Of a stretch of DNA of 64,000 nucleotides, positions 25,910 to 61,900 are shown piece after piece (the first letter of the stretch is position 1; each line of letters begins with the position of its first letter). The stretch lies in assembly GCA_050084515.1 (NCBI GenBank), contig CM114271.1:45818001-45882000 (forward strand). The letters are read 5' to 3'. The position numbers were made by a program, and so were the translations under genes. Under the pieces are notes generated by a model. That model did no database searches and was not told the origin of the DNA. It saw only the letters and a list, made by a program, of their open reading frames with translations. This stretch comes from Blasia pusilla. Taxonomy: Eukaryota.

Positions 25910-26740
25910 ATTTGTGTGTTAGATCTCTTTGGTGGGATTAGCACTGGTTTGGCTGCAGTGTTGCATGCCGGTATTCTTGTGCGGAGATACGTGTATGTGG
26001 AGCGAGATGAGACGGCCCAGTGAGTCTCATCCCGACATATTGGTCACTTGATCTAGATGGCCATGTCAAGGTCATACACGTGCTGGTCGTGGTGAGGGAT
26101 TACATGACCCTAGGTCTCGATTGTTTTGGGAGATGTTACGGGTGTTACGACATCTTCAGGTTCATCAGGCACGTGCTCTAGCTTACATTCTGGAGAATGT
26201 TCCATTGTTGGGTGACACTCGGACCCGGATGATGGCGAGTGTTCATGAGGTGCGGTCTTGATTGGACCAGCGGTGTTGTTGGATGCGTGAAGTTGGCTCG
26301 CGTGCACATCGCCCACGCTTGTGGTGGACAAACTTGTTGCTTAGGAGATTCTCGTCGAGCATATGATGTAGTGCAAGGGATCCTCGCTTACAGTGGATAG
26401 TATCTTGGATACTGGGCGACTTTCTCAAGTGGTAAGGGTTATTGATCGGTCACCCATGGCAATGGTGAACCGTGTGGGCCAGCCTAGGATGGCACTACCC
26501 ACATTTGTGAATTTTCCCTCGTCACATGCCTACAGGAAGGTGGTCCGGGGCTTGTATGGGATTCTCATGTGCGGCAGTTGGTGGAGCCTAACGCTGATAA
26601 GAGAGAGCGTGCGATGGGATTTGCTCTTTGGTGTGACAAATGGTTGCTTCTATTTCGAGGCTTCACGACGTCATGTGTTGGATCAGGCCATGGACCTGAA
26701 TTGTTTGACTTGGATTTTGAGTCTTGGTATGGCCGAGCAA
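25910..26740 (+). pseudogene. DNMT3-like C5 cytosine methyltransferase domain in Gypsy copy 1
   Basis: ICVLDLFGGISTG (motif I), YVERD (II), WPCQG at 26061 (IV), ILENV at 26193 (VI), HRPRLWWTNL (VIII), RERAMGF (IX), RRHVLDQAMD (X). Has an internal deletion and frameshifts. Confidence 0.88.
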
Positions 26741-29700
26741 GCGTCGACTTCGGACTATGTCGTGGGTCTTCCACCCTTGTAATGAGCTCGATGGCTACCG
26801 GGGACGGTAGAGGCATTGGTCAGGGGAGAGAGTAGTATTTTGCATCCTTGGAGTAAATGGGATGTAATGGCTGGGCATGTGGAGTTGGTTGCTCATGCTG
26901 GTGGAGGAGTTATTTGCTCAGATGATGGTGTAGCTAAGGGTGTACCATCTTGTAAGGGGGTTGCGTAGCAGCCAATGGCATCGTCCTCTCCCTCTAGTGT
27001 GCCAGTGGAGGAGACTTGGGAGCCATTACTTGGGCCCAAGCTTATAGGAGGTGAGAAACGACGCTTGACACAGTTCCTACGGGCTTATAGGAGTTGTTTT
27101 GCCTTTAGCATGAAGGAGTTGGGTTCTCTGGTTGGACCCGGTATACGGATTGATTTGGCTAGTGATACCCCAATCTTCCGTTTTCCCTACCGATATAGTG
27201 ATATGGAGAGGGACTTGATTAAGAGTAGGACGTTGGACCTTTTGGAGGCTGGATTAGTGGAGTTGTCGCATGGAGAGTATGCATTAGCCATTGTCATGCC
27301 TGCTAAAAAGGATATGCATAGCAACTACACGGATAGGCGGATGTGTGGAGATTACCGTCCTATCAATCGGCAAACCAAGGCTGATAAGTATGCATGCCTA
27401 CACCGAGGAGATCTTTGATGTGGTGGGACAGAAAAGATTTTCAGTATTTTGGATCTTGAGGGCAGATACCATCAATTTCCGATTCGGGAGAGTGACAAGG
27501 CCAAGACAAGATTTTGGGGTGTCAACTCATGGCAAGGATTGTTTGTACAGTGGAAATTCTTACCCTTTGGGTTGAAGAATGCACTTGCCGAGTTTCAAAG
27601 AGTGATGGACAGGATCCTAGTGTGGTTGGATTTTGTTCGGTGTTACATTGATGATATCTTGGTGTTCAAAGAACACGGTGGAGGAGCATCGATACATTTG
27701 CAGATGGTGTTTGAGCGGTTGAAAGCTCATGGTCTACGTTTGCATCCAAGAAAGTGTAAGTTCTTCCATGAGGATGTTGAGTACTTGGGTCATGAGATCT
27801 ATCCATGTGGTTTGGGAGTTCAGCAAGCAAAGGTGAAGGTAGATGTGAGTAGAGTTTGAGCATTCATGGGATTGGCGAACTACTATCGGAGGTATGTGAA
27901 AGGATTTAGTGCTATGGCAAAGCCTTTGAACCAATTGTTGAAATCAGATCAAGAGTGGCACTGGGGAGATGATCAGGAGAGAGCTTTTGTGGAGCTTAAG
28001 GCCCAGTTGGTGGCCGCGCCTATCTTGAGGAGACCTATCAGAGGGCGCCCATTTTAGTTACACACTGATTGGAGTAGGTTGGGACTTGGAGCGGTGTTGA
28101 CACAACATGATGATGAGCACATGGAGTTTGTGGTGGCCTATGCAAGTCGTTCGAATAATGCAGCAGAGTCGCGCTATAGTTCATATGAGGGAGAGTGCTT
28201 GGCAGTAGTGTGGGCTGTGGCACACTTTAGGTGTTACTTGTTTGGCACCCAGTTTATCCTTGTTACTGATCACCAACCGCTCAAGTGGTTGATGGAGTCG
28301 GACAAGCTTACAGGGAAGCTTGCACAATGGGCTCTTATCTTACAGGAGTATGACTTCCAGGTGGTACATAGAGACTGGAGTTGCCAACCTTGATGCCGAT
28401 GGGTTGAGTAGGAACCCATGTACTAGCCAAGAGGATACAATCGGGGCTAGATGGCATGGCGAGGTTGATGAGGAGATGGTGCCAGTTGGCATGCATCCGC
28501 CTTTTATGTTGGTTAGGGATGGACTCTAGTATGGAGGACCACATGATATCTTACTCTAGTCGAGGGTAGATGGCCACCTTCAGATCTTAAGGTTGAGATG
28601 GTGGTATGGATCAGCGTGATATTCATGATGATGCGTTAGTGTTGGAGTTCCTACGGACCAAGAGGGTGCCAGGCATAGTGAGTGCCAAGGAGCGAGACCG
28701 TGTTCTTCAACGTGCTAAGAGGTATCGATTGAGGGAACCCATATTCTCGCGTGTGGGAGGATGGTAGAGTACGAGTAGTGCCACATTTGGCTCAGAGAGA
28801 GCGCGACAGCGACATGCCCATGAGGAGTTGGGAAATTTTGGGTAAAGCGACGTAAAGCTTACTCCTTGGCCAAGACATTGGTGGCGTGGCATGCATACTC
28901 AGATGCAGCAGCTTGGTGTCACGTTGTATGGTTTGTGACCGGTGAGGGCATCATTTAATGCCCCTACACCACAATTACACCCTTGCCTATTATGGGGTTG
29001 GTTTACCGTTGGAGTGTGGACTTTTGCGGGACGTTACCGTTGATCGACATCATCATCGATATGTGTTGGTGATGGTGGAGCACTTCTCCAAGTGGATTGA
29101 GTTGGTGGCATTACGGGACAAGGCAAGTGAGGGAACGGCGTATGCATTTCTGGATAGAGTGCTTAGTCATTTTGGTGCACCAACCGAAGTCTTGACCGAC
29201 CAGGTCTGAGTTTGTGGTGAGTTTGGTCTTGTGTGACAAGGCGTTGATTGATCATCGGACCACATCTCGAGATCATCCAGAGGCGGATGGTTTGGCTGAG
29301 CGTGTGGTTCGAGGACGGTGAAGAGGGCATTGCGCAAGTATGGCCTCTGAAGGGCATCTTGAGACAGGATGTTCGGTTGCCATGGTTAGCCATGGGGTAT
29401 AGGGTTTAGTCGCCAAGCATCCTTGGCTTCCTTCTCACCTTATTTTTCTGTTATATGGCGAGATCTAGACTTGCCAAAAAGAATTGTCGGGGAGTCTAGT
29501 GAGGTGGTGAACCTTGATGACCCAGAGATGTGGATGAGGGTGTGTTCTCGGCGGAGCTCTTTCGAGAGTTATGCCACAACGGCCTTTGAGAATCTTGCCA
29601 TTGCTCAACACAAGGATACGTTTGCGGTATGCAACCATTCGAGGTGGAGGTTATCGACCATCGATTCAGAGGTTCCATGTGGGGACTATGTCTATTTGCA

Positions 29701-30216
29701 GCAGATTGCACCGACAACGTTGGATGTGACGCGCAGCCGCACTATTTTACGAAGTGCGCGAGGTGTTACCTTCCGGAGTTCTCATGTTGGAGGGTCGTGA
29801 TGGAGTTGTTTGGAAGGACCATGTGCGTAATTGTGCGCCATGTCATCTTCCAAATGTGGATGGTAATGTTGACCCAAGCTTAGCCATGATATTTGCTAGC
29901 TTGAGGTGCATGTTGTGTGGATCACTGGCAACGCCCGTATGTTGGTGTGTGATCGGTGTTCTAGGGGTTGGCACATGATGTGTTTGACTCCACGTATGGA
30001 TGTTGTTCCTAGTGGAAGGTGGGTTTGTCCTCGATGTACTTAAGAGAGGTAGATGACTTGATCTTTGCATGATATGGATTACAGATGTGCGACTAACGAT
30101 GGGGCAACCTAGCACCCGGCCTTCTGATTCGGGCACCCAAGAAGGTGTATAGCATGTAGTAGATGTATAGGGCTACCTGGGAGTTAGAGGGACCTAACCG
30201 CAAATTAGGGGGGCGA

Positions 30217-30783
30217 GTTGTGGTACACTTGTGTTTGTGGATACTCTCGTCTATGTTATGTATGTATGTGAGTATGGTATGTCAGCAATGTATGTTGTAT
30301 GACGATGTGGATTTGCACGACAACTGTCATGACCATACGGATTATGTCGTAGAGTATAGTGTGCTAGTAGAGGCCATTCCTTATGTAGGACCGTAGTGGC
30401 TTGGTAGAGATGCGGTTCCATACATAGGGTTGGGGGTGACTTTCCCAATAGGGCCCGATCTTAGGTTGGAGGATATAAGGTGGAGTGCACTCAAAGAACA
30501 GTCAGTTCTTTGAGTTGAGCCTGTTGCGTTGGGAGTTAGCCTTGGTAGTGAGTAGAGCTCTTGGCTATGGTGTTTCCCGCAAGCTTTGACCTAGATTCTT
30601 CCATCGTGGAGTGGGTTTGGCTCGATTGTATGTGATTGTATACGTGTTTTATGACAGTAGGTCTTTCACGGATTTCAGTTGTGGTACACTTGTGTTTGTG
30701 GATACTCTCGTCTATGTTATGTATGTATGTGAGTATGGTATGTCAGCGATGTATGTTGTATGACGATGTGGATTCGCACGACA
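30217..30783 (+). repeat. 3' terminal block of Gypsy copy 1: B1 (30217-30322), AC spacer, A2 (30325-30677), B2 (30678-30783)
   Basis: B1 and B2 are 106-bp direct repeats with 2 differences seen; A2 repeats A1. Confidence 0.95.
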
Positions 30784-34436: not shown

Positions 34437-37400
34437 ATGATAGAGTATGGGAGCGTAGCGGAGGCGGAGGAAGCCTTGGGGCGGGCGTTGAGCAGTTGGG
34501 AGGTGAGATGGTTCAGTTGGACTGCAGATGTCGGTGATTTCCACCTGTACTGCATGAACATCTTGTTTCTTATGATAGTGTACAATGTCGGTCCGTTGCC
34601 CGCGTTTCTCCTGGATGTCTACAAAGTAAGTGCCTTCGAGAAGTATAAGCTCCAACCTGGAGTCTATAACACCAAGTCGGCTGTGATTCAATGCTACAAA
34701 GCGACGACGATCCTCTTCTTCACCGTTGTCGGGCCTTTACAAGTACTCTCATATCCCGTAATTAAGGTGCTCTCTCTCTCTCAAATTGTCACCAGATCTG
34801 TTCGTCAAATTCACTGGCCTAGATTCTCAGCTCGAAGCCGTTGCTCTGGTATATTGTCTCTTTTGGGTAGTCCGATCCGGTGAGGTAGATAGTGTTATAG
34901 AGATCTTCTTAGTTATTGGCTACAAGCTCCGCATCAAGATTGTGAATTGTAACTTCTAGTACTGCACGAGTTAGTGTAATTTGCCTCAATGTAGTACTTT
35001 CTTTAGTTGTCCCTCCCTCTCCACCCATACAATTGGGATCAATGATGGCAAGGCTCCAACGGCCATCTCTCTCTCTCTCTCTCAGTGTCGTCAAGCACCG
35101 TCCAACCAGGGCGCGGGGTCTATGGTCGCAAGGCTACGACAGGCACTACTTAATGAGTACAGTCTCTCAGTGTCGGAAAGAGCTTCTTGGTTGGGAGTTG
35201 GAAGCCCCGCACCATCACTTTGTATGGTCAGCACTATGTGAGTGTCTCCCGCCTCTCAGACAGGCTCTACTTAATGGGTACAGTCTCCTCATGTCATAAA
35301 CAAAGACTGTCCAATCTGAAATAAACAATGACTTTCCAATCTGAAGGTAGAGCTGTGTCGGTCGGAGGAAACAACAAAATAAGCACAACATTCTGAGATT
35401 ACTAGACACAGCAGAAAAATCTTGCCAGGACCAACAGGGGCCCAAAACAAAGGATTTCACTTGAGAAGTAGAATTAGTGTTTGAAACTGAGAGTAAACGC
35501 TATTACAGCAACACTAGACATGTTTCTGATCAAGGGTGGGTCGTACTTAAATGCGTCATCCCGTGATGCAGTACAGATGATTGGAATACATTCAGGCGTA
35601 CCGCTTCCATCTCTCCAAACTGTACTTTTGCAGTTGGCAGTCTACTTCATCGTTGAGGACTACTCCAATTATTGGCTTCACAGATGGCTTCACTCAAAGT
35701 GGGGCTACGATAATATTCACTATGTGCATCATGAATTCACAGCACCAACGAGCTTCACGGCTGCATACTCTCATGTTGGTGAAATGCTTATACTAGGCAT
35801 TCCTACTTTCCTGGGTCCAGCCCTTGTACCTGGACATATGATCACTCTTTGGATTTGGGTAGCCCTCAGGCAGCTGGAAGCAATCGACACCCACAGCGGG
35901 TATGTTGATGAATCTCAGAATCCAGTGACTTGTTGAGAAATCCTACTAGTACATAGCCTTACTTTTTCTTGGAAATCTTGATCCCATGGCTTTTGAGAGC
36001 TATTGTGAGAACATTGTCAGGTTACTTGGAAAGAAGTGTGTGTGCATGTGGGATCTGCCTTCTTTAAAATGAAGAATCTCAATTCTTCTACTGTTATTGT
36101 TAACTCTGATCGCCTTTTCTTTCCGATCATCGTCTTGGGTTCCCATGGACAAAAATCCAATGTTCCATGTTTCTTATTTATTTTTTCAAAAGTTTCTCTG
36201 ATATGAAGTCCTTCGTGTGATCTGTCTGTATTGTGGGTATTCAGGTACGATTTTCCATTCAGCTGGACAAAATTGATTCCCTTGTATGGAGGTGCAGAGT
36301 ACCATGACTACCATCACCAAATTGGTGGTAAAAGTCAAAGCAACTTTGCGTCGGTTTTCACGTACTGCGACTGGCTATATGGCACAGATAAGGTTGGATA
36401 GAGCTTTGGTGGAAATCATGGAAAACTATTGAAGCAATAGTGTAGCATGCTTGTTTCCCTGCTGGCTGATTGCATACATCTCGAGAGGAGGCTAGAGGAT
36501 GAGAGGGAACACCTTCAGTTCATGCCATCTTTAGACACCTATTTATACCACATATTTAGTGGGTCTAGCACCCTACTTACAAATTTTACGAGATATGCTC
36601 CATGCAGCCCTCTAGAACTCCAATGTACAAGATCTATAATGCATGCCATAATATGTACAAAAGTACTGAAGAATCTAAGTTTCGGTTTTGTCCACTACAA
36701 AACCAAAACGTAGATTGTAGTTGACAGGAACCAGAAACCCCTAAAAGTGTTGTGGAAGTTTGTGGGCTTGTTCTCCTTTGATTGAAGCTCTTGTTTTATG
36801 TGTGACTGACGTCTAGAATCTCATGGTTTTTGAACTTGCAGGGGTACAGGTATTATAAGGATGCAATAAGAAAGGTCAGTCCCTCTCTTTCTGAACTTTT
36901 CTCAGAAAAATAATCATTTTGCACGTTATATCCCAACACTCTCACCGAAGGTGTCAAAGTTGGAATTCAGCTTCTTGCCCAAAGAAGTCTTCCACACTCA
37001 TGAGAAAAAATGAAAGCAGGGGTACGGCTTAGCTGTGGAGCAGCATGAATGGTCATGATGTACTAAGATGCCTTTTAAGTGGGAGGTTAGGAAGAAAGCT
37101 GAGTTCTTAGTAATGTTGAATCTCAATTTCCAAGCTTTATTGCCGTTTTCAAATTGTGCATGTTGATCTTCTCTTCAGCTAATGCAAAGTATATTCGACT
37201 ATCTCATCTCCGTTGTCATAAGATGGTCATGTTTCAGTTGACGAATTAGTTACAGATGGGGATCTTAATCCCTGAGTTGTCTGAGAAACTAATCATGTAC
37301 ATTCACTTTTGTGGGAGAAGGCATTCATGATCCAATCTGCTCGTCACGAAGGTGTTCCTTTTTGAGAGCCTGCATTTGACCTGAGGACAACTATTCAGTG

Positions 37401-37570
37401 GCATTCTCAATACCTCTGTCCAAAGAAATTATGTCCCCCAACTTTACTTTCAGCAAGATATGGTCTAACTTTGTGTGAATGTGGGAAAAACTCTGTAGAT
37501 GCGGACGGAAAATGTCGATGGGACAAATGTCTCATCCAGGAATGATTTCGCAAAGAACAAGGTGGCGTGA
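34437..37570 (+). CDS. SMO1: Sterol 4-alpha-methyl oxidase, SMO1 type, 5 exons: 34437-34766, 35577-35899, 36245-36392, 36842-36874, 37499-37570; 301 aa
   Basis: N-terminus MIEYGSVAEAEEALGR; His boxes HRWLH, HYVHH, HDYHH; GT-AG introns in phase. The last exon is less certain but ends KNKVA*, a KxKxx ER-retrieval signal. Confidence 0.93.
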
Positions 37571-39416
37571 GAACCCATTGTTTGCTACATATTTGACAAG
37601 TCTTTTGGACAATTTAATGTTTAGTTATATCACTGCAAGGAGCCTGGAGCCATGCAAGTGCAGTGATTTTTGGGATTATTGCGATGAACCTATTCATTTC
37701 ATCTTCTATCAAATGTCTGAGCCTTATCTGTAAGAGTCAGCTGTGGTACCAAGATTGAGGGATGTGGGGTGAACTATGAAGGGATATTGCCGTGAGTTGC
37801 CTAGACAGGATCTCACGTTATGTTTGCTCCACAACTACATTCAAATAGTTGTCTTTAGATGTGTCAAGGGAAGTTGAAAGCAAGTGTTGATCAGGATGCT
37901 TATGGTGGAGAGGCAATGTCATTTGCTTAGATTGGTTTAGGACGTGGAAGTATGCCTCCATTAACCGGTGAAAGAGATTTAGATTCAAGTGACAGCCGCA
38001 CCTGTGACAGAGCCCACTCTAGCTTATTTGATCCGGATCTATGTGGAGAGAAGAGAGACTGGACCTACGTTCATGAAGCAACTGCTGATGAAGCAACTTA
38101 GAAAACGTGCTGAGGAGATCATGGCTCTGTTTCAAAGAATTTCATTTATTATGAATCTGTCAATTTTTTTTGTTGCCCACTAGTAAGCTTACTCATTCTG
38201 ATGGGCATGAAGTCAAATCCTTCTTGGATTGGGACTACTTGTTCACAAATTTGAAGAGTAAGATTCCATAGATTATTGCAGTGTTCTATGTTTTTTCCCA
38301 CGTTTCTATTTTTATCCTTAAATTTGGTAAAGATGGACATTTCCTTTTCAGGCACTCAGGGATATAGATTCTTGCATTGAGATTCTCATGTATGCAATGT
38401 GTTTCTATTTATGTAGTGTTTTCATGCATATGTTGGAGATGGATATGTATGATGCACCAAAAAGAATCATGCGTATCTTGTAGTGCCAACCTTGATATAA
38501 CCAAACGCTCCTTGACTATTCCAAGGCATTAGACCCGTCCGTATCCTATAACAATGGGAACATTATCCTACATAAAAGATACTATTTGAAGAATCTTAGA
38601 TATTGCGGTCATTTTACTTAACATTTGAAATTTTTGTTGTGTATTCCTTCTTGGGTACAACGCTCATCCCTTAAACCTTGTTATGTACTAGTTTTGCATC
38701 ACAGTGTCCATTTGTCATGAACTAGTCAGTTCATGTAATGGCTAGCATGTTAGAACATGTATATCTAACATGCGAACCATTACACAAAAAATGTTCATCT
38801 CATGCTAAGCTTCTCATGAAATGAACATTATGTGGGCCATGAAGACCCTTGGGTCATCTCCTAGATGGATCATGGAGACCCTAAGGGTTATGCCCATCTA
38901 CGAGTAATTTGTATGTGTAGCTCATGCTATTTTGAATTTGTGGAGGAATTAATCAAAATTCCTTGACCTATTTTGGAGATACGGATGATGTAGGTGCATT
39001 ATTACTTTATAAGCTTTAGGGAAAATCTATGGTACAAATTATTACAAGTGAATAATGGAGAAGTAGTTTTTTCTAGGATCAAGTTTTTTCTAGTTCTTAC
39101 TTTGAAAAAATGATACCATTAAAGAACTCATGATCTAAATTATCATAAGTTAATGCAATTTTTAAAAAATATGGGAAGAGTCTTATACCATTGATAAACA
39201 TGGTTGAAAGTTGAGAATTCTTTCATTCCCTTTAGAGAGTCTCTTTATCAAGGATTTTGACTCTATGATCATTTCCCTTTCTTTCGAATAACTTACAAGG
39301 TAAATGATAAATGTGTTTGTAACCCATGCTTCTTCCTTCGCAAATACATATTATGGAGCAGTGTCCCTGAATCACTCTTGCCTATGTAGAAGTACACATA
39401 AAGTTGCGGTTAGGTT

Positions 39417-40177
39417 TGTCGTGCACATACACATCGCTACATAACATACATCGTTGTCATCGAACACACACAAACACACACGATCCCATGCTGACTCATG
39501 GCATCCATACACAGAGGCGAGAAGCACCAAAATATCTCCAATCTGTAAAGTAAGATCCAATCTCTCTGTACACCATCTCACACCATAGCATTCAAAGATG
39601 TGCACTATCTCTCATGTCAAACCAAACTCATTCTCCTAATAAAAGGCTTGGGTTACACTCACAAGGCAAGGAACCATAGGTCCGCCGCCTCATGCCAAGA
39701 GGTTCAACAAAGAGAGAATGAGCTCCCAAGTTCTCTTTCCTTGAGGTATACCCCTCCCCTCTCCCAAGCTCTCTCCATGGTAACCTATTCTCCCAAGTCA
39801 CCTCTTTGGCTCTTGACCTGATGTAGGAGGTCAAGGGCCACTTACCAAAAATAAAAAGTCGATCATATATTGAGAATGGTACTTACCTAAAATAGTAAGT
39901 TTCTAAATATGGTCCAAATGAGCCGAAATGAAGGGGAAACCTGCTCTCTCAGGTTTCCTTGGGCCTCAACACGCCATCCTCGAATTCATAGGCCTGTCCT
40001 CCACTACTCGTGCAGACGCTTTGCTAAATCCCACCGATATATCCTAACAATCGTGGCAGCTGTCGTGCGCATACACATCCCTACACAACATACATCGCTG
40101 TCATCGAACACACACGATCCCATCCTAACTCATGGCATCCATACACAAAGGCGAGAAGTACCAAAATATCTCCAATC
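39417..40177 (-). repeat. 3' terminal block of Gypsy copy 2: B1 (40177-40061), GC spacer, A (40058-39544), B2 (39543-39417)
   Basis: 39417-39543 and 40061-40177 are direct repeats differing by a 10-bp indel and substitutions; the element ends GCACGACA. Confidence 0.92.
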
Positions 40178-43100
40178 GCCCCCTAGTTGGTGGTTAGGTC
40201 ACTCTAACTCCAGATAGCCATCTATCCCTACCTACCACGACATACATCTCTAGGACGCTAAGAGCAGAAAGGCCGGGTGCTCATGTGGCCCCATTGTTAG
40301 TCGCCTTCATGTCATCCATGTCACAGAAAAAGTCGGAATCGAAACCTACCTAGTTTCTCCTCTATGTACATGTGGGACACATCCATCGTCCCCGAGGAAC
40401 CCTAGTGAGAGGTGGCGTCAGACATGCCATATGCCAACCTCTCGAACATCCATCATAGACTAGCATCGTGGCCGCACCACGAGCATAACCACACAACATA
40501 CAACGCAAGCTTGCAGGAACTACTACTAAGCTTGGATCTATTGCACCATCAATGTTAGGAAGGTGACATGGCGCACAATTACGCACATAGTCCTTCCATA
40601 CCATACCATCGCGTCCCTCCAGCAAGAGAGCACCGGATGGCAAAACGTCACGCACTCTCAGGATAGTGCGCCTTGTAGTCACATCCAACGTCGTCGATGC
40701 CGTCTGCTGTAAGTAGACATAATCTCCTTGATGAAACCTCCGGATAGTTGGTCGATAATCACACCCCGAATAGTCGCATACCTCAACGTATCCCAATGCT
40801 GCGCAATCGCCAAGTTCTCGAACGCCATGGACATCACTCTCTGAAACAACTCAGCCCTTTGAGAACATGCTCGCATCCATACATCTGGGTCATCAAGGTC
40901 TAACACCTCACCAGCATCTCGACGAATGGCCGTAGGTAAATCTGGCTCTCGGCCATAAAGTAGCAAGTACGGTGAAAAAGATGCTAAGGATGTCTGTCTG
41001 CTGAATATGTATCCCATTTGCCAACCATGGCAACTGGAGGTCCCAATCTCCTAGGTGACCTCTCTGCAAGGTCTTCACCATCTGCACAACTCTCTCCACT
41101 AATCCATCCGCCTCGGGATGATCTCGCGAAGTCGTGCGGTGGTTGATCAACGGCTGATCACACAAGGCCTGGAACTCACCGCGAAACTCGGTACCCTGGT
41201 CTGTCAACACCTCAGCCGGTGCGCCATAATGTCTCAACACTCTATCAAGGAAGGCATAAGCCACTCCCTCACTTGCTTTGTCAGGCAATGTAACCAACTC
41301 GATCCACTTCGAGAAGTGCTCGACCATCACCAACACATAACGACTGTGATGTTCTGTCAAAGGAAAAGGTCCTGCAAAATCCAAACTCCATCTATATCCT
41401 AAGCCCATGATCGGTAATTGATGCAACTGTGGAGTCGGAGCATTGAACGATACTTGGACCCGATCACACACCATGCACTTGGCAACAAACTGGTGAACGT
41501 CAGTCTGCATGCCTCGCCACCAATACTTAATCTGGAGCAAGCTGTACGTCTGCTTCACCCCAAAGTGACCCAACTCCTGGTGGGCATGCTGCACTAGTTG
41601 TGCTCTCTGCAAAGGATGCAGCACTACGCATACTCTACCATCCTCCCAAACCCTCAAAACATGTGTCCCCTCCAAACGGAACTGTCTGGCCCGTTGTAGG
41701 ATCCAATCCCGCTCTCTAGCACCCACGGTGCTTGCAACGCTACCAATACAAAGGTACTCCAAGACTACTCCATCATCATGAATATCTCAGCCACCTGTGG
41801 TCTCCTCACTGGCCTCGGGATCCAAGGACTCTCCACTAGACCTCGCCATCGAAGTCTCCACACTTTGGCTCTCCATAGCCAACATGCCTAAATAGGCTGA
41901 CGCGTGCCATCCTGGCACCAACTCCTCATCACTCTCTCCATGCCATCGAGCTCTAGTCACATCTTGCTGACTCGGGCATGGGTTACGACTCAACCCATCT
42001 GCATCTTGGTTGAGCGTCCGAGGTCTATGTACCACCTGAAAATCATACTCCCGCAACAACAGAGCCCATCTCGCAAGCTTCCATGTAAGCTTGTCGGACT
42101 CCATCAACCACTTGAGTGGTTGATAATCAGTGATGATGGTAAAGGGGTTTCTGAATAAGTAACACATGAAATGCGCGACAACTTACACCGCAGCCAAGCA
42201 CTCACCCTCATACAAGTTGTACTTCGCCTCTGCAGCGTTGTTCGAGTGGCTAGCGTAAGCCACCACGAACTCTCTACCCTCATCATCATGCTGGGTGAGC
42301 ACCGCTCCAAGCCCTAACATGCTCCAATCTATGTGCAATTGGAAAGGACGCCCCCTGATCGGTCTCCTCAAGATGGGTGCAGACGTCAACCTGTCCTTGA
42401 GCAATTGAAATGCTCGCTCTTGCTCATCCCCTCAGTGCCACTCGTGATCCACTTTGGTCAGCAAGGTCAGCGGCTTCTCAATCGAACTAAATCCCTTGAT
42501 GTACCACCGATAGAAGTTCGCCAATCCCATGAATGCGCGAACACGGCTCACATCTGTAGGGCGTGGAATGCGTGAGATAGCCTCTACCTTCGTTTGATGA
42601 ATACCAAGGCCCCCTGGGTATATCGTATAACCCAAGTACTCAATCTGGTCGTAGAAGAACTTGCACTTGCCTGGATGTAGCTTCAGCCCATGTAATTGCA
42701 ATCGTCAAAACACCTCCTCTAGATGTCGCTCATGCTCCTCAACCGTGGCGCTAAAGACTACGATGTCATCAATATAACACCTAACAAAATCCAGACTAGC
42801 CAAGATCCTATCCATGACCCTCTGAAACTCAGCCGAGGCCTTCTTTAACCCAAATGGTAAGAACCGCCACTAGTACAAACAATCCTTCCCGTGAGGATCG
42901 ATGCCCCAAAATGTTGTCTTTTGCTTGTCCTCCAATCTGATTGGCAGCTGATGGTATCTGGCTCGCAAATCCAATGAATTGAAGATCTTTGCCTGACCAA
43001 TCGCATCAAAGATCTCCTCACGGGTGAGCATGGCATACCTATCGGACTTTGTCTACCGATTGATAGGTCGATAATCTCCACACATCCGCCTATCCGTCCA

Positions 43101-43724
43101 GTTGCCATGCACATCCTTCTTAGCGGCCATAATAGTGGCAGATGCATACTCCCCATACGACATCTCCACTAGTCCTGCTCCAACCAAGTCCTGGCTCCTA
43201 CTCTGAATCAAAGCCCTCTCCATATCACTGTACCTGTAGGGTCGTCCGAAGATCGGTGTATCACTCGACAACTCAATGCGGATCCCCGGTCCCTTTAGCG
43301 TACCCAAATCCTCCATGGTAAACGCAAAGCAGCTCCTATAACTCTTGAGGAACTGATGTATTTGGCGCCGCTCTCCTCCTGTCAACTTAGGGCCCATATT
43401 TGGCTCCCAAGTCTCCATCGTGACTACGGTAGGACTCTCCACCGCGGGTATCGGTGGTTGCTATGGTGCAACCCCGTCTCGAACAACAACAATCGGCCTC
43501 TCTCCGGCAGCCAATTGTAAACTCTGATCTCCTCCACGTGGAGTGCCCGTAACCACGCTCGATGCTGTGGCTATCATCTCTTGGCGTACCTGCAAAACAT
43601 CCCAAGAAGTCCAAGGGTGTCTCTCTCGATCTCCCCTAGTGTGTAGATCTCTTCAGGTCTCGTCCCCAACCACTACTTCCACCATCTCGGTAGGCATGGA
43701 GCCCACCAATGCAATCCCTATGAT

Positions 43725-44710
43725 CTATCGCGATCTCATACGACGCTGCTCAACCATTCCCAAGCTGAGGATCCATGTCAAGTAGTTCAGGTCCATTGCT
43801 TGACCCAAGACATGGCGTCGTGATGCCTCTGACAGTGACGATACTGCCGTCACTCCTGGGGGAAATCCCATCGCTCGCTCTCTCTCGTCGGCGTTGGGCT
43901 CCACCAACCGCTAAACCTGGTCATCCCAAACCAAGCCAAGATCGGCCTCCTTGTATGCATAGGAAGCGGGAAAACTCACAAACGTGGGCAAGGCTACCTG
44001 CGGCTTGCCTACCCTGTTGACCACAGTCAACGGTGGTTGATCATCGTGCCTCACTGCCTATGAGCAATGATCAGGATCCAAAATAGAATCCACTAACAAA
44101 TGGGAGGGGCGCTCCACTCTCGCATACGCCCTCCGTAACACCGCATCGGGCACCAAGTTGGTCCACCATAGACGCGGGCGATGGGTTGTAGAACCTACAC
44201 TCGCCGCGTCCAAGAACACTGCTGGGCCAATCCAGGCACGCACCTGATGAGCACTCGTCACCATCCGTGACCTGGAGTCTCCTAAGATCGTCACATTCTC
44301 CAGAATGTAGGTTGGAGAATGAGACTGGTACTCCTGCAACTACCGTAAGACCCTCAACATCTCCCAAAATAACATGGATCGAGTGTCAACCAACCCACTG
44401 CTTTGTCCAGCACTCGATTGGCCTTGACATGGCCAATCGGAAATGACCAAATAAATGGTGCCTAACCGGTCTAAGTCCTGTGTCCCCAGCAATGAAATAT
44501 CCCTCGGTAGGGAACTATGGTACCCTTGTACCGCGGACGCAGACAATAAGTCAGGAAAACATAGGCATAACTGCGCCACATGTCATAGTGAGACGCGTCT
44601 CGCAACATCATCTCTCTCCACATACACGTGCTGCTGCACTCGCACTCATGCCTACAAAACAGCAGCTAACCCGGTGCTAATCCCTCCAAAGAGATCTAAC
44701 ACTCCAATAT
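43725..44710 (-). pseudogene. DNMT3-like C5 cytosine methyltransferase domain in Gypsy copy 2
   Basis: IGVLDLFGGISTGLAAV, YVERD, DWPCQGQS (44424-44432), YILENV (44292-44300), HRPRLWWTNL, ERERAMGFPPG, RRHVLGQAMD; one frame interrupted by stops. Confidence 0.92.
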
Positions 44711-45310
44711 CCTCCTTCGGGATACACCACACAATGGGTGTGGTATCCAAGGGTATCATCGTAACACTCCCTGCTACCTCGGGTTCCTCAGACATGTCAC
44801 GCTCCGGTGCAAACGCCTCGCTCCACACGATCTGCACGTGCTCATCTGCCAATCGTCGAAGCTCCTCAGTCGAGCCCCACAACGGAACCTCTCCTCCACG
44901 GAATGATGCGGCTACCTTAACACTCCTCTCTATAGAAATGTCAGGAACTGGAGTATCCTCTGCATGGACATGTCCCTCAATCAAATCACTGGGCCAAGTG
45001 ATGGCACTGCTAAGGTCGCCATCTCTCCTGGCCGTTGCTCGATCACTGCACCTCTGAATCAAACGGGTAATGAGCTAAGACGCCCATCATCTGACTGCCA
45101 TCCTGGTCTGTAGGACGCTGACTCCTCCCAATAATCCAATGAAAATCCCATCGAATATAACACTGCTCTACTAACCAAGACGTCGTAGGAGTCTGCATCA
45201 GTCACTATCGCCTTGGCTCGCACCACGGACTCATCTGTAGGATGTCCCAAGCGAATCTTCACCACGACCTCCTGTCGGGTGATATATTGTGTGGTACTCG
45301 CTCCACCCAA

Positions 45311-45516
45311 GCCTTCTCAATTATATAGGATATGTACAAGTAACCCTAACACTAATCCTAATCCTAACCATAGTCCCGAGCTATATTAAGTATAGTCAAC
45401 TAATCCTAGTTAAGATAATCATGCTTAACTAACTAACTAACCAAGATCAAGCTTTCCTACTTTGTATGTAGCAGTTTGTATATCCGATGAGTTCGATTAT
45501 AACTCAATCTTCAATA
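45311..45516 (-). repeat. Truncated LTR of the same Copia family as 49-4543
   Basis: Reverse complement reads TATTGAAGATTGAGTTATA...GTTAGTTAGTTAAGCA...CTTGTACATATCCTATATAATTGAGAAGGC, matching the first ~200 bp of the Copia LTRs. Confidence 0.9.
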
Positions 45517-46029
45517 TTAGGGACTGACACATCCATATAGGCTCGACTATCTCCATCTTGCATCCGGGCTAGCCTTGCCCGCATTCCCAAACCCAATCTT
45601 GATTGTGCACTGCACCCCTCCCTCCTCTGGGTTGCATCCCTCATGCAACCTCGACACGCATCCATCCCCTGTAGGAGGGGCGTAGGCAAGATGTGCGCGG
45701 GATGCCTTGGTAGGGTGTGGGCAGACAACCGCCGACATGGGAGTTAGGTTTTCTTATTATTATTTTTTCATTTTTTAGAATAAGAAATATTTTCTTAAAA
45801 AATAAATTACAAAATTCCCATGTATTGCGTGTACCGATAGGATGTAGGCAGGGTTCGAGTTACATGGGTCCGCACCCCACTTGTATCCCTCTTGCATCTG
45901 GCGTGCATAGGAAAGGTGCAAGCCAAATGCTAAAGGGATCTAGGCAGGGGTTGCAATAGAGAAGTGGGCTACATGAGGCATGGTGCAAGAACATGTGCAG
46001 AATGACATTTTCGAACTAGTTCAGAAAAG

Positions 46030-47462
46030 TCCGTCCCATGGATTGACAAGTCCATTTTTGTGCAACCTTGGGTAAATCCCAATTGCAATGTACAAAAATA
46101 TTGTTAAAGAAAAGATGAGCTACTTCCAACACCGTAACAATATTTTAGTTAGAAGGAAAACTCCCATCTTAGAAAATCAATCTACCACTACCATGTTTGA
46201 GTTAAATCCTTTCAATTCAAGTAATCCTATGGTAAAATCCATAGCAATACTTTCCCATCGTCCACATGGAATTGGCAAAGGTTGAAGAAGGCTCGATGCT
46301 TGCCATAATTTGTTTGGTTCTTTTAGCAAACCAAACACACTTTATGGTATCCTTGTCTTGAGATGGCTTGTAGGAATATTTCTAAAGAATATCTAAGGTT
46401 GATACTTGACTTGGATGTCCCACATGAGGTGCATCATGATGAACCTTAAGAACCTTTATCTTTTAACTCTCAAAAAATATATATCCTTTTTTCTTGAGTT
46501 TAGTGTTCCATTTTACAATACCATCCACAAGTACAATGCGTCTCACGCTTGCCCCCTTCTTCAGAGCTCCTAACCATCCTTGGGCCATTTCATCGAGTTG
46601 GCAAGCCACCTTCTCCAAGTTTCTCGAATTGATTTCCAACACCCAAGTTCCTCTCAAATATTTCTCTTGCCTACTCAAGGCATCAACTATCATATTTTCC
46701 TTGCTTGCTTTATAAAAAAATTCCATATCGAATCTTGCTAGGTATTCTTGCCAATAGACTCATTTTGATAATAGCTTCTCCTAACTCGAAAAATACTTGA
46801 AAATGATATTGTCGGTGTAAACCTTGAAGTGTGGACTATGAAACAAGTATACTTGCCACTTCTTGAGGCAATGAATTACCACATACATCTCCCTTTCATG
46901 ATCATGAGTTATCTAGTTGTTCTCTAACTTGGTTGACTCGTAAGAAATTGGTCAACCTGCTTGTTTCAACACTCATCTAATCACAAAGATAGATGCATGG
47001 TTCCAAACTTCAAATGGGATCCCGATTTCTGACAACTTGAGTACATGAGGGTCGCTTATTAGAAACTCTAATTTCTGAAATACCTCTTCACACTCCTAAG
47101 ACCATTAGAAAAATGTTGCTTTCAGTGTTAAGTCATAGTGTAGTTTAGCAATCTTGGAAAAATACTAGATGTATCTTCTATAGAAAGTGACAAATCCAAC
47201 AAATGACCATCTTTCGGTCAAATTCCTTGGCGTTGGCCATAACTTAATAGCCTCAAGCTTATCATGGCTAGGTCGTATGCCCAAAATTTTCAATGTGTGT
47301 CCCTAGAATTCCATGAGGAATTCCATTTCTTGGACCATGAAGCAATGCTTAGAAAATTTCATGAAAAGTTTGTTCTTCCTCAAACGCACCAAGACTTCTT
47401 TGGGGAGAACCTTGTGTTTCTCTTGGATCTTCAAATATATAAGTATGTCATCAAAGAACATC
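46030..47462 (-). mobile_element. Decayed fragment of an unrelated, conventional Gypsy pol (RT end, RNase H, integrase start)
   Basis: VFFDDILIY (~47430-47460), YKASKENMIVDALSR, HDAPHVGHP, RWESIAMDF; many stops. Confidence 0.8.
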
Positions 47463-49024
47463 ACTCACGGGCGCTTGAACCCTCGTCACTTTCCTCTTGG
47501 CCTCCCCACTAACCTTTCTCTTCACAAGCGGTGACTCCTTGGGTTCATCCCTTTGGGTATTTAAGCACTTGAGATCAAGTTCCTCCAACGAGTTGCTACG
47601 AGACTTGGGTTGAAGTTTTTGCCAATTGGTGTTTCGTCCCCCAAACCACCATCCTAATTGGGTAAGTCATTGAAGTCTCAAGGGAGGTCGGGCCTAATTA
47701 GCTCATTCATATTACCCCGCAAACCTTCCCCAAGCCGAGGGGGTTCGAGATCCATGACCTTCTTCTTACTCTTACGAGGCTTGTCCTCATCCTTGGCCAT
47801 GCTAATTATTGCCACTGAAATCTCCCACTAACCATGGCCTATTCAATGGTGTATTTTTATACCAAATCATAGAGTCTGACTACTAGTTCTCCAAGATTTC
47901 CCTCAAAGCACTCATAACCTTGAGATTTATAAGTGAAAGACTTAGTTTGAGTCCCAAAGACTCAACAAGTTTGCTCGTTTGGTAGGTAGTGAGAAACTGC
48001 CAAGTGCAAATCATATTGATTCTCCCCTATGCGTACGGTCTCCATTATAAGTCTCTTCCCCAAGCCTCGACCAATCTCCCTAAGTCGCTTGTCTATACCA
48101 AATTAAAGCGTGTTGGCTAATTCCTTAAGGTGTGTCCAAGTAACTCAAACTGAAGACACAACTAAACATGCATCAAGGTTAGTTCCTAGTTCAAGGACTT
48201 GAGCGGGTAGGGAGGGAGAGTGTCCTCCCCTATAGGTACTTCTAGGGTTCTTCAGGGGAACCCCATCTTCCATATTGCTCCCCTTGGACCCTTAATTTTG
48301 GCCCTGAACCCAAACGTAGTTTGCGACCCACAGACCTACGTTAACGTTCCACTAGTTATTCATCAAGATTGCTTGGCGAAGGCTTCTTACGGATTATAAA
48401 ACTCTCAACTTCTCAAATGCATCTTTGAGCTTGGATCCGCATTTATGTGTCTCATGGCTAGCGTCTATCTTAACTCCCGATTTGATGTCTATGGTTGTCT
48501 TGCTGCCCTTTGTGTTTTGTAACTAGTCTTGAGGCGTCTTTCCCATCTTGACTAGTTACGTGTTTCTTGCTTCTCGCCCTTGACTCAAAGGTCTCAAACG
48601 TTAGGTGCTTGTCTTTTTTCCTTGCCAATAGATATGCTCCATATATTCTTGCCTACGGCTAGTCAGAAGACACATGCATGTCTCGCCTAGCATTTGTCTC
48701 GCGGTTGATCCCACGGCCCTTCCCAATCTCGTAACTAGCTAGTCTAGGTTCCGACTTTAGTGGTTCATGCTAAGGTCTTTCCTCCCTAGACCCAAGATTA
48801 TAATTCACTTCCCATGTTTTGCGTAAATCCCTATTGTGAATATAGTTTGCTTTTCATTTCGAGAAGTGGCCCTTGATCCACTATTGTAGATAAAGAGCCA
48901 AACAGATGGATTGCAAACACATGTTACTAAGAAGACAACTTTAAGAGATGAAAAGGATATACCCTCAGAGATTTGTGGTCCTCCTTGTCCAAGCCTCTCA
49001 CTAGGAGAGTGGGTTTGGTTTGAC

Positions 49025-49026
<2 letters not shown>

Positions 49027-49064
<38 letters not shown>
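49027..49064. repeat. (GA)19 microsatellite
   Basis: Perfect dinucleotide run. Confidence 0.95.
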
Positions 49065-49069
<5 letters not shown>

Positions 49070-49720
49070 GTTCCATATACCATTAGAAATATTTTGGTAC
49101 ATGATTGTCTATATGTATAGATGGCATGAGTGGGTATTTTTATTTTATTTTTATGTATGTGTGGATGGTGACATCGATATATATTGTGTAGCGATGTTTA
49201 TGTCCACTATAGGTATTCTAACATGGATAGAAGTGCGGTACTACTTTTGGGTGTGGAGAGAGATGAGAAAATATGGTCATGTTAATCTTGATGTGTTGGT
49301 TTGGCATCATTGGCTCATCTTACCAATTTTAGGAGCGTGGTTTTTTATGAGCTTGTATGGAATATATTCCATGATTGAGTAGAGGTGGAACATGCAAGTG
49401 GAAGTGTAGTCAAGATGTTAGTTGCAAATGGTTGTTTGTGAGGAACAATGGTCTAAGGCATTCTTGATGTCAATCTTGGGTGTGCTTCCTTTGGGTGATG
49501 GCTATCCTAGATGTATAGTATGCTACATGATCAATTGTCATCACAAGTGGGCAACTAACAATTGAGCAAGTCACCATCCAATCTCTTGATCTTCTCACCA
49601 AAAATATGCATATAATTTTAAATGGGTCGGCTGACTACCTAGAGTTGGAAAGACCTAACCATTAGCTCGAGGAGGGGGATTGTGTGTCCCTTTAACATCT
49701 GCATGATGATGTGTACTTAT

Positions 49721-50415
49721 ATCCCATAATTGACATTTTTGACACTTTCCTACTTGCATGAAACAAAATGTTATAGCATAAATTGCTTATCAACACTTGT
49801 ATCCTAAACCCCAAACGCGACGTCTCCTCACTATTTGTTTGTAAAATCAAGACAACGTATTTCTGCGTGAATTTACAAGGTGATGTCCATGTGACTAGCT
49901 CTGAATTAAATGTTCGAGAATCAAACTAGACATCCGGTATGCTGCCTCCAAAAGGGCCATATATTGGTTTCATCCATAGGAAACAATCCCATAATTGACA
50001 TTTTTTGGCACTTCTAAATCCCAAACGTGACGTCTGCTTGCTATTTGTTTGTAAAATCAAGACAACGTATTTGTGTGTGAATTTGCAAGGTGATGTCCAT
50101 GTGACTAGCTCCGAATTAAATGCTCGGAATCATAATAGACGTCCGGGATGGTATGTCCAAAAGGGCCATACATTGGTTTCATCCCTAGGAAACAATCCCA
50201 TAATTGACATTTTTTGACACTTGCCTACTTGCATGAAACAAAATGTTATAGCATAAATTGCTTGTCGGATTACTATCCTAAACCACAAACGCCACTTCTC
50301 GTCACTATTTGTCTCTAAAATCAAGACAATGTATTTCTACGTTTGAAGGTGTGAATTTGCAAGGTAAACTCCATGTGACTAACTCCGGATTAAATGCTTT
50401 GGAATCAAACTAGAC
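49721..50415. repeat. Diverged tandem repeat, about 3 units starting at 49721, 49986 and 50195
   Basis: Each unit begins ATCCCATAATTGACATTTTT and contains AAAATCAAGACAA and CCATGTGACTA. Units are 265 bp, 209 bp and a partial third. Confidence 0.9.
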
Positions 50416-58986: not shown

Positions 58987-61900
58987 CTAGTAAGATGTGC
59001 ATTAATTAAATGAATCCGAATATTCTATTTCCATAAGGATTTCCATAAGTGTATAAATTATTTTTTTTATGGAAATAAAGAATCCAAAGGAAATTAATTA
59101 TGTCGAATACAAAATCTTTTGTAGTGTCCTTAAAAGAGAGAAATATTTTCTTGATGTCATGTGTAGGGCGGACAACGAAGTGTTTGCAAATAAAAAAGGC
59201 ATCCTCCAATAATATAACAAAATTTCTTTATATATTATATTTAGAGCGTAGTGACCTTTATTTGAATGTTCCTCGTTTCCAATTGTAATATGGATGGTAT
59301 TTTTCTTTCCTACCCTAGACAATGCTATATATAATTGGTCAAGAGAGAAAATTGGAGTAGGCAAGTAAATTCCAACGGTTTGTAGAGTTTGACCTTGAGA
59401 CTTATTAATAGTCATAGCGAAAGTTGGACGAAAGGGAATAGGGAATTGAAATCTACACATATCAAATGGCAAACCAGAGTCAGGTGCAATCAATAGGATA
59501 CATGGAATAAAAACTCGATCTCCAATATTCTTCCCTGTGATGATTTCAGCGTCGTTGCAATGTTGCATGAATCCAAGAATCACAAATCTAGTCCCGTTCG
59601 CTTGTCCTTGTGATCCATTCATGTTTCGTAAAAGTATGATTGGTGCACCAATCTTCAAACACAAACAATGTGGAGGTATTCCATATCTTTTGTGATAATC
59701 ATGAATTCAAAAATTATGTGGGATATGTATATATAAGTCGTCCCCTCGTTTGGAATAGAGTCAACATTGAGAGAGAGATATGCTCCTATAAAAAATAAAA
59801 GAGTATGTTATGAGAAGAATGGTAAGAATACTTTATTAAATAATTAATGAAATCAAATGGAAATAAGAAAGGATAAGTGCAAAATAACTATTATCTTTCT
59901 AGGAAATCAAGGCATGACATCTGCATTTATATCGTCAACATCTTTGTTTCTTGATATGAGAATAGTTGTATCTCTTAAGAAATCAATATTATGGAATTAC
60001 CTATATGTAATTATGGCGTGAACAAGAAATTTGAGTCCTACAATATGCAAACAAGCGCACCGTGCGGACAGAAGTAAAAAAATCCGCTATGGAATGCACT
60101 TTGGAAATATATATGTGCCCGTACGATGTGTAATACCTATAATGTAGATAATCATTTTAAGAAAAAATTGGTAAGGTGCCTAATAAATATATAGTTTGTC
60201 AATTGTATGATCAATTGAATGTTTTATGTTGAATCTTCAATCTTTTAATTGGAGATTTATACAATATATAATCTATTTTTGCGTATAGTCATTTTCTTGA
60301 TTGGAGTTTTCATCGTCTTCGATCTTGTTACTTTTTACAATTGACCGTGAGAGAATACGACAATAAGCAAATAAATCCCAATCTTTTGCAGAGTTTGACC
60401 TTGCAATTTATTAATAATCATAGTAAAAGTTGGACAAATAGGAAATTGAAACTTACATAAAGCAAATGAAAAATCGATGCGATCAATAAGATACGTGGAA
60501 TAAAAACGTGATTCCAAATATTCTTCCATGTGATGATTTTAATGCAATGTTGTATGAATCAACCAATCAACAATCTAGTTCCGTTTGAATGTTCGTGTGA
60601 CCCATTCATGTTTTTGAAAAGCATGATTGCTAATATTCAAATATATACTATAATGGGAGAGTGCCTTTTTTATTTGCAAACAACTCTCTTTTTGACACTT
60701 GGCAACTAGGCGGTAAGAAAATATTTCACATGCTATAGGCAGCAAGAAAAAAATTTGAATTTTTGTGTATCATCATTAGTCCCTTCCCTTCACGGGCTAC
60801 ACACTAGAAAAACTCAACAGACATTTTTGTCTTTCTCGGGCACCTTACTAGTACAAATGATGTGGAGGTAGTCTAGCAAGCAAGCATGTGTTTAGAAATT
60901 CAGTATGATACATATGATTCATCCCCTCATTTGGAATAGAATTGACGCTAGGAAAAATATGTTCGTGCATGCAAATGTATGTAAAGTAGTGAGAACAAGC
61001 AATATTTGATTAGTATTCAAAATCTCATAAAAGAAGACTCTTAAAAAAATTATACAAAGTATAGATTTCCAAGAAATCAAGATATGATGTCTGCATTTAT
61101 ATCGTCAACATCGGTGTTTCTCGATGTCAAAATGGCCGTATCTCTCAAGAAGTTAATGTCATGGAATTAGCTAAGAAAATGTCCATAGATAAGGCGAATA
61201 AGGTTGCATATCTTATTACTATTGATAATCATTTCAAATGGAAATTGGATAAAGTCTTCACCTAAATGAGGGTGCAAAGGTACATGACCCTCTCCCACCT
61301 CCAATAATCAATCCGCAAAAGCTTGTTGTTCAACACACATATTACCTTCCAACCTTTGAACTTGCATATTTTTTGTTAACTTCGACATTTTTACGAAATA
61401 CTATAGAGATGACATGTGGATAGTGGTTTGGATGATTTGTGGATGATCCCCATGACAAACAATCGGTAAGACTTGACGAAAGTCACCATCAAATATCATG
61501 AGTTTTTCGCCAAATGATAATTATCGTAAAAAGCAGAGACCACTCCCATAATATCTTGCAAAGTGAGATTCACTACCTCAAATGCATGACGTTGAGTGAT
61601 AAGAGCTTCATCCCATATAATTAGCTTTGAAGCACAAATTACGTGCACCTCAACAATATTGACCGTTAAACTACAAATGGAAGGAAACAAGTATTTAGAG
61701 AAGGAAATGGTTTATTCAAAGAAATGAAATAGTATGTATTTAGAGAATTTGATATAAAATGTAAAAAAATACTTATGTGCAAGTAGAGCTCTCATGAAGA
61801 TTAATGGAAATCTTGAAGCAGGAATGTGTTGTACATCCTCCATCCAACAATAGAGCAACTATTCCAAATAAGGCCACAACCAAAGCTATACCACTTGCAC

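Follow-up and report, generated by a model that had tools for sequence, protein, structure and literature searches.

When a retrotransposon carries an enzyme of the class with which its host silences it, the usual arms race is turned round, and such cases are rare. From the green lineage, the case in print is KnitGypsy-Dnmt3 of Klebsormidium nitens, Gypsy elements with a DNMT3 domain in pol, whose DIRS-like repeat structure is given in the Fig. 4c legend (de Mendoza 2018, PMC5890265). As set out in the main text of that paper, the case rests on one alga and comes without demonstrated enzyme activity: a yeast assay of the Klebsormidium Gypsy DNMT3 domain was called inconclusive by the authors (PMC5890265). 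In the same paper, the domain of SymbioDIRS-Dnmt3 from Symbiodinium methylated CG de novo in yeast (PMC5890265). Methylation of the element's complementary DNA (cDNA) for camouflage or self-regulation was already put forward there as speculation (PMC5890265), and a preprint names 'streptophytes (Gypsy-DNMT3)' as a known case (bioRxiv 10.64898/2026.05.21.726589). Here we analysed a stretch of 64,000 nucleotides from Blasia pusilla (assembly GCA_050084515.1, contig CM114271.1, positions 45,818,001 to 45,882,000), hereafter the window, which holds two decayed copies, copy 1 and copy 2, of a Ty3/gypsy-like element with a methylase domain in pol. Their family is very probably the bryophyte branch of a green-lineage-wide Ty3/gypsy-like group whose pol includes a DNMT3-type domain, a kind described under the name KnitGypsy-Dnmt3, with copy 2 as a dead, 5'-truncated member.

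The methylase domain in pol of copy 2

The pol region of copy 2 runs on the minus strand in a single frame from 45074 to 40365, with no frameshifts and 19 in-frame stops (nine TAG, nine TGA and one TAA). An earlier reading made from the letters of the window alone (the original prediction) had assigned nine open reading frame (ORF) pieces here to one frame, and all nine listed starts do lie in the frame of 45074. Reading this frame through with X at the stops yielded a conceptual protein of 1570 residues, P0002, on which the Pfam domains follow in the order DNA_methylase, RVT_1, RT_RNaseH, Integrase_H2C2 with rve, and a C-terminal PHD finger. The methyltransferase motifs named in the prediction, LDLFGGISTG, ERD, WPCQ, ENV, HRPRLWWTNL, ERAMGFP and RHVLGQAM, were all recovered in the minus-strand translation of 43725-44774, in order from I to X. 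The predicted domain was real, whereas its upstream limit had been drawn too short: the family profile, whose envelope on P0002 spans residues 103-450, sets the start about 60 nt further upstream, at ~44768. A search with PF00145, suggested as a check, matched the read-through protein at 29.4 bits against the Pfam cut-off of 22 (E 7e-7), and intact relatives scored 35-50 bits against the same model.

The domain had also been described as DNMT3-like and distinct from the circularly permuted plant DRMs, and sequence and fold comparisons agreed. Searching PDB sequences with phmmer returned DNMT3A (E 5e-9), DNMT3C (3e-7) and DNMT3B (4e-6), followed by DRM2 (0.01), M.HaeIII (0.05) and DNMT2 (0.12), and the alignment with DNMT3A was collinear across motifs I-VIII and IX-X. 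A plant DRM, in which motifs VI-X precede I-IV, was rejected, the order here being I to X and DRM2 matching weakly; query residues 21-146, which hold the N-terminal motifs, fell on ~226-346 of DRM2, in its C-terminal part, an offset to be expected with a permuted enzyme. An AlphaFold2 model of the domain, built from an alignment of 24 family sequences (pLDDT 74.5, pTM 0.81), had as its top Foldseek hits exclusively the catalytic domains of DNMT3A/B/C (E ~1e-13), with TM values of 0.73-0.79 normalised to catalytic-domain-only chains. The stretch between motifs VIII and IX (residues 241-279) was modelled with low confidence, and target specificity therefore cannot be read from it. Across the 24 sequences, which share 41-64% identity, 18 columns are invariant and 38 nearly invariant, catalytic motifs included; motifs I (FxGxG), IV (Pro-Cys), VI (ENV), VIII (RxR), IX and X are conserved throughout. 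By sequence and predicted fold, the domain is a DNMT3-type C5 cytosine methyltransferase, closest to DNMT3 among solved methyltransferases.

The catalytic cysteine, which the prediction had called intact, is in place, but seven stops cut the domain, so copy 2 cannot make the enzyme; its methylase is a relic. In addition, the GWPCQG of the family reads DWPCQG in copy 2, with Asp in place of the nearly universal Gly before Trp-Pro-Cys. An origin of the copy 2 stops by C-to-T deamination was unsupported: of the 19, just 6 stand opposite Q, R or W when relatives are aligned, the others facing L (5), H (3), G (2), E, V and P, and the relatives used are too distant to polarise the changes. At 0.74 for copy 2 and 0.64 for copy 1, the CpG observed/expected ratio shows no special depletion of the elements, other measured stretches of the window lying at 0.50-0.69.

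Intact relatives, selection and co-inheritance

The claim that methylase, reverse transcriptase, RNase H and integrase had formed one polyprotein was upheld by uninterrupted relatives. P0155 (2324 aa) carries, without a break, CCHC, protease, DNMT, reverse transcriptase, RNase H and integrase, and P0153 is an equally uninterrupted series of DNMT, reverse transcriptase, RNase H, integrase and PHD finger. These single-ORF relatives refute a chance juxtaposition, in which a host DNMT3 pseudogene came to lie beside an unrelated gypsy insertion; such an accident would account for the broken and truncated copy 2 and for nothing beyond it, the same arrangement recurs in the second window copy at 71% DNA identity, and the DNMT and reverse transcriptase trees described below share a split. 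We give it practically no weight.

A protein search with the domain as query matched 153 proteins of similar length (192-613 aa) at E<=1e-3. Among the 120 of these that were listed, the best homologue is 64% identical (E 9e-138), and the named sources are Calypogeia fissa, Sphagnum species, Marchantia polymorpha, M. paleacea and Riccia sorocarpa. Thirty longer proteins (863-2748 aa) matched at the same threshold; Marchantia polymorpha accounts for 15 of them, all gene models with the annotation hypothetical protein, and Sphagnum fallax for one. In a more distant set (172 hits, 120 listed) the methylase lies between RNase H and integrase, with the PHD finger after it, and the matches listed include Scenedesmus, Haematococcus and Monoraphidium proteins. 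In the three sets, the matches listed (120 of 153, 30 of 30 and 120 of 172) included none with the name Klebsormidium. P0310 from Closterium sp., with CCHC and DNMT, is likewise a family member. A search with the family profile among 1.84 billion representatives retrieved 491 clusters at E<=1e-30, a number that rises to 1926 at E<=1e-10 and to 8202 at E<=1e-3. The protein atlas offered the annotation 'C5 methylase, Streptophyta' and nothing further.

The methylase shifts as a module between two positions in pol: of 122 fetched proteins with both domains, the reverse transcriptase comes first in 111 and the DNMT in 11. Two chlorophyte-type proteins from outside the window, P0150 and P0152, have the methylase between RNase H and integrase and end in some 330-350 residues beyond the PHD finger with no Pfam match; P0150 also has a G-patch match downstream of the methylase.

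Confinement of the domain to these copies and neutral evolution had been named as an outcome that would speak against the original prediction. Relatives were instead found in bryophytes, a zygnematophyte and chlorophytes, and the suggested comparison across copies gave ratios of nonsynonymous to synonymous substitution rates (dN/dS) of 0.10-0.27 for the methylase, indicating purifying selection. For this comparison, metagenome contigs yielded 314 pattern matches, of which 155 encode relatives and 80 loci were kept. NG86 estimates for the methylase were 0.142 for L058 against L059 (dS 0.25), 0.12 for L058 against L060 (dS 1.37) and 0.10 for L059 against L060 (dS 1.48), and L001 against the L002 group gave 0.155-0.178 (dS 1.7-2.0). 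Within the young L002 group, where dS is low, the ratio was 0.33-1.06. Between copy 1 and copy 2 the DNMT gave 0.27 over 277 codons, with dS at 1.57 and near saturation, and the reverse transcriptase and RNase H gave 0.18 and 0.09, again with dS near saturation; the integrase stretch returned no dS, and window-versus-metagenome pairs, at dS >2, were left out. The methylase domain of the family is under purifying selection.

That the methylase is a neutral passenger, a functionless host DNMT3 fragment captured once, would suit the decay of most copies, a stop-free frame of at least 390 aa around the domain being present in only 8 of the 80 metagenome loci (the domain itself lacks stops in 6 of 17 loci examined closely), and would suit the ratios of the one young group. 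A passenger would not be expected to show dN/dS of 0.10-0.14 between intact lineages, the invariant and nearly invariant columns of the 24-sequence alignment or the 491 clusters at E<=1e-30, nor to be retained in chlorophytes, a zygnematophyte and bryophytes, and we consider this explanation very improbable.

We built DNMT and reverse transcriptase-RNase H trees from the same 29 sequences, 4 with the DNMT first and 25 with the reverse transcriptase first, the latter chosen by hand among 96 that satisfied the length filters; P0153 and P0131, which make up half of the DNMT-first sequences, fell below these filters and were included all the same. In both trees a single branch separates one domain order from the other (SH-aLRT 99 for DNMT and 97 for reverse transcriptase-RNase H), and several subclades agree between them. 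The trees are compatible with one capture followed by one rearrangement, without proving either.

Proposed role of the methylase and the PHD finger

In active members, the methylase would be translated as part of Gag-Pol and would then methylate DNA cytosines de novo, either in the DNA that is reverse-transcribed from the element itself or in its new insertion. That methylating its own cDNA or new insertion is the function for which the domain is selected is a tentative proposal from sequence comparison, possible rather than probable. The benefit might be camouflage, protection of the cDNA, self-limitation or something else.

It is rather unlikely, in our judgement, that the enzyme is instead kept for another job, such as methylating the host DNA that surrounds the target site, acting as a methylase on RNA, or restraining the spread of the element itself to the advantage of both the element and its host. 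From purifying selection and the conserved motifs it follows that some catalytic function is kept, not which; the occurrence of the domain at two places in pol, before the reverse transcriptase and between RNase H and integrase, marks it as a free-standing module; and the paper on Klebsormidium lists these alternatives itself (de Mendoza 2018, PMC5890265). Against an RNA target, the closest solved relatives are de novo DNA methyltransferases and not the RNA enzyme DNMT2 (E 0.12), but nothing here separates the targets.

Several points weigh against the reading of these elements as a KnitGypsy-Dnmt3-like family with a methylase maintained to act on its own DNA. Both copies in the window are broken; they are dead and do nothing. 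The dS values of 1.57 between the copies and 1.7-2.0 between L001 and the L002 group are near saturation and make those ratios rough, and the values in the young group, as expected of decay after insertion, show that most copies are not under selection. The trees are unrooted, lack an outgroup and come from a quick search on 29 hand-picked sequences. The likeness to KnitGypsy-Dnmt3 is a likeness to its published description, and the published yeast assay of the Klebsormidium domain, the only assay of any Gypsy DNMT3, gave no methylation. Finally, in two RNA runs from the same species, of which ~6% and ~12% were read, no read fell on the methylase bins at 43780-44675. Over 6.7 kb these runs gave 35 and 40 reads; at the places listed within 40334-40693 every covering read carries another letter, and these reads therefore likely come from other copies, while reads at 44853-44882 fit over only ~30 nt.

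The PHD finger at the end of pol had as its best PDB sequence match the CHD4 PHD finger (E 1.4e-13), followed by KDM5/Lid, PHF12, KAT6A, ATXR5, PHF21A, AIRE and UHRF1. Most of these PHD fingers read unmodified or specifically marked H3 tails, and attached to the integrase, the finger would steer insertion to chromatin with a particular state of the histone H3 tail. A chromovirus, with a chromodomain past the integrase, was rejected, the PHD finger standing there instead; P0293, from among the chlorophyte-type relatives (120 listed), combines PF00385 with PF00628.

Element structure and comparison with known systems

The features of the two copies are collected in Table 1.

Table 1 Features of copy 2 and copy 1, in window positions
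Feature	Position	Strand	Basis or remark
Copy 2, whole element	~45316-39417	-	5'-truncated
Copy 2 aspartic protease, C-terminal remnant	45008-45316	-	tblastn of Marchantia P0125, residues 672-775 only, frame -1
Copy 2 DNMT3-like C5 cytosine methyltransferase	43725-44768	-	motifs I-X in canonical order, 7 in-frame stops
Copy 2 reverse transcriptase, RVT_1	42621-43091	-	Pfam PF00078 E 1e-26, P0002 residues 662-818
Copy 2 RNase H-like, Ty3/gypsy type	42045-42428	-	PF17917 E 1e-28, PF17919 E 2e-26, residues 883-1010
Copy 2 integrase, H2C2 zinc domain and DDE core	41115-41609	-	PF17921 E 5e-16, PF00665 E 1e-12, residues 1156-1320
Copy 2 PHD finger, pol C-terminus	40368-40502	-	Pfam PF00628, 32 bits, E 1.3e-7
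Copy 2 3' end	39417-40190	-	purine tract (..CTAGGGGGC), then B1', A', B2', ending ..GCACGACA
Copy 2 B1'; A'; B2'	40177-40061; ~40060-39544; 39543-39417	-	direct repeats D1/D2, junction sequences
Copy 1, whole element	21224-30783	+	more broken than copy 2
Copy 1 5' repeat A1 (TGTCATG...GATTTCA)	21224-21591	+	GACA just before; blastn of copy 1 against the window
Copy 1 gag (~23286-24300) and protease region (~24862-25473)	23286-25473	+	tblastn of P0125, matches in frames 3, 1, 2, 1
Copy 1 DNMT3-like domain	25850-26911	+	stops and at least 2 frame changes
Copy 1 reverse transcriptase, RNase H, integrase, PHD region	27010-30212	+	blastn against 43416-40179, 71% DNA identity to copy 2; decayed
Copy 1 3' end	30216-30783	+	B1 30216-30322, 2-nt spacer, A2 30325-30677, B2 30678-30783, then GACA

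Copy 1 belongs to a sister subfamily of copy 2, with 68-78% DNA identity overall. Its methylase aligns with that of copy 2 by blastn at 25865-26010 (78%) and 26058-26746 (68%), in tblastn frames 2, 3, 2, and remnants of motifs IX and X occur among the listed ORFs; nine stops fall inside one tblastn match over the reverse transcriptase and RNase H. P0125 aligns with the gag of copy 1 at 70% identity, a match that by itself points to a relative of this liverwort as the probable source of the window. On its coding strand the family is rich in G (0.30-0.31) and poor in C (0.18-0.21), as measured in window positions 40365-45316 and 23286-30212 and in loci L002 and L007; this holds for decayed and stop-free copies alike and accounts for the pronounced GC skew that the composition profile shows at both copies.

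The repeats of copy 1 follow a full A-coding-B-A-B pattern: A1, the coding part, a purine tract, B1, two bases, A2 and B2. In copy 2, B-A-B comes after the same purine tract, and its A and B share no blastn similarity with those of copy 1. The metagenome locus L057 shows the full pattern; in L066 the pattern and the B repeat were not found, and L007 and L062 end too soon to judge. Target duplications of 4 bp flank copy 1 (GACA) and L057 (TCTC). The repeat unit begins with TG and ends with CA, and B closes with an inverted copy of the sequence that opens A. Three elements, copy 2 (39417-40190), copy 1 (30216-30783) and L057 (10340-10963), are otherwise unalike in the bodies of their A and B repeats but conserve the purine tract with its upstream context (..CTAACC.C.AA.TAGGGGG..), the end of B (..GCACGACA) and the first bases of A, which read TGTCATGACC in copy 1 and L057 and TGCCACG in copy 2. 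Judged by its sequence, the B|A joint within the element resembles an end-to-end junction that has been retained there. A retained junction of this sort is also the interpretation given to split direct repeats in DIRS-like and PAT-like elements, yet the enzyme here is a DDE integrase that generates target duplications. For KnitGypsy-Dnmt3 the same peculiarity is noted in the Fig. 4c legend (PMC5890265).

Two familiar architectures were rejected. A canonical Ty3/gypsy element, with two identical long terminal repeats (LTRs), does not match a left end of A alone and a right end of B-A-B, the sequence past A1 not being B; and a DIRS-like element, with a tyrosine recombinase and without target duplication, does not match rve and Integrase_H2C2 domains with no phage-integrase hit in the Pfam scan and with 4-bp duplications at copy 1 and L057. 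No primer-binding site was identified.

In copy 1, 6 of 353 aligned bases and one 15-nt indel distinguish A1 from A2, and 2 of 107 bases distinguish B1 from B2. These flanking repeats are thus only ~1.7-1.9% diverged, yet the coding part holds many stops and at least ten frame changes; either copy 1 was already defective at insertion and was mobilised in trans, or its repeats have been homogenised. In copy 2, residues 777-1243 of P0125 continue by tblastn in frame -3, and one frameshift near 45010 separates the frame -1 protease remnant from the remaining pol. No gag and no 5' A repeat were found upstream, the A repeat having been sought across 36000-50000; copy 2 is truncated inside the protease region, since nothing of gag or of the 5' repeat lies beyond the remnant. 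Just past this end, at 46670-47464 on the minus strand, lies a fragment of a different gypsy-type reverse transcriptase and RNase H, 24% identical to P0151. Over the A repeat of copy 2 (39524-39971) the summed word depth in the DNA contigs of one run was ~90,000-99,000, against ~300-28,000 over most of the coding part; depth is not copy number, and this A repeat may be far more abundant than the full element.

Elsewhere in the window, a 202-aa ORF at 59101-59706 on the minus strand matches the Pif1 helicase 2B domain (E 8e-13) and, from this match, may be a Helitron or Pif1-like remnant. A 201-aa ORF at 16970-17572, also on the minus strand, has weak NSD-like PHD matches (E 2e-5, below the cut-off) and sits in a block at 12.7-17.6 kb with long minus-strand ORFs and strong negative GC skew that may be another mobile element. 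Direct repeats of 153 nt at 193-345 and 4386-4538, 82% identical and 4.2 kb apart, are possibly the ends of yet another.

It is quite possible, if somewhat short of probable, that Gypsy-DNMT3 elements, rather than stemming from a single isolated capture in Klebsormidium, form one old clade across chlorophytes, zygnematophytes and bryophytes, with the methylase co-inherited with the reverse transcriptase, a PHD finger in place of the chromodomain and the internal B|A junction kept despite a DDE integrase. If so, the methylase would long have been essential to an unusual cycle of replication or integration, and this cycle would have persisted into land plants. Elements of this kind are common among bryophytes, the model liverwort Marchantia polymorpha included, in which gene models annotate copies as hypothetical proteins, and the intact members in public data provide a tractable land-plant setting for the role of a transposon-borne DNMT3. 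Moreover, DNA_methylase hits in bryophyte and algal genomes can be fragments of transposon pol and not host genes, which calls for caution in annotation.

Compared with the catalytic domains of animal DNMT3A/3B/3C, its best sequence and fold matches, the element's domain keeps motifs I, IV, VI, VIII, IX and X collinear, whereas identity in structural alignments is only 18-20%, the stretch between motifs VIII and IX is longer, and PWWP and ADD are lacking, the sole reader domain being the PHD finger ~1075 residues downstream in pol. Chromoviruses likewise bear a chromatin-reader module on the C-terminus of a gypsy-type integrase, in their case a chromodomain instead of a PHD finger; chromodomains steer integration. 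The DAM-LTR or 'EpiLTR' elements are also Ty3/gypsy-like with DNA methyltransferase modules, but the modules described in the preprint are adenine methyltransferases, and the cytosine module of these elements falls with DNMT4 rather than with DNMT3 (bioRxiv 10.64898/2026.05.21.726589). SymbioDIRS-Dnmt3, in the published account, shares a DNMT3-type domain in a pol polyprotein and two coexisting domain orders, and differs in its use of a tyrosine recombinase (PMC5890265). The element of the window instead carries an H2C2 zinc domain and a DDE core in its integrase and makes 4-bp target duplications.

Beyond de Mendoza 2018 and the phrase in the preprint, literature searches returned no description of a bryophyte, Marchantia or green-algal Gypsy-DNMT3 or of an element joining DNMT and PHD, though supplements and figures of these sources may list more species. 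As the paper describes KnitGypsy-Dnmt3, the two share an unpermuted DNMT3-type domain inside a pol ORF with gypsy-type domains, DIRS-like A-coding-B-A-B repeats, and purifying selection on the methylase (Ka/Ks < 0.2 in the paper, 0.10-0.27 here). They differ in that the relatives found here come from bryophytes, a zygnematophyte and chlorophytes, and in the PHD finger past the integrase, a domain that goes unmentioned in the paper's main text (PMC5890265). The Gypsy-DNMT3 kind is thus already in print, and the present analysis establishes its breadth across bryophytes and chlorophytes.

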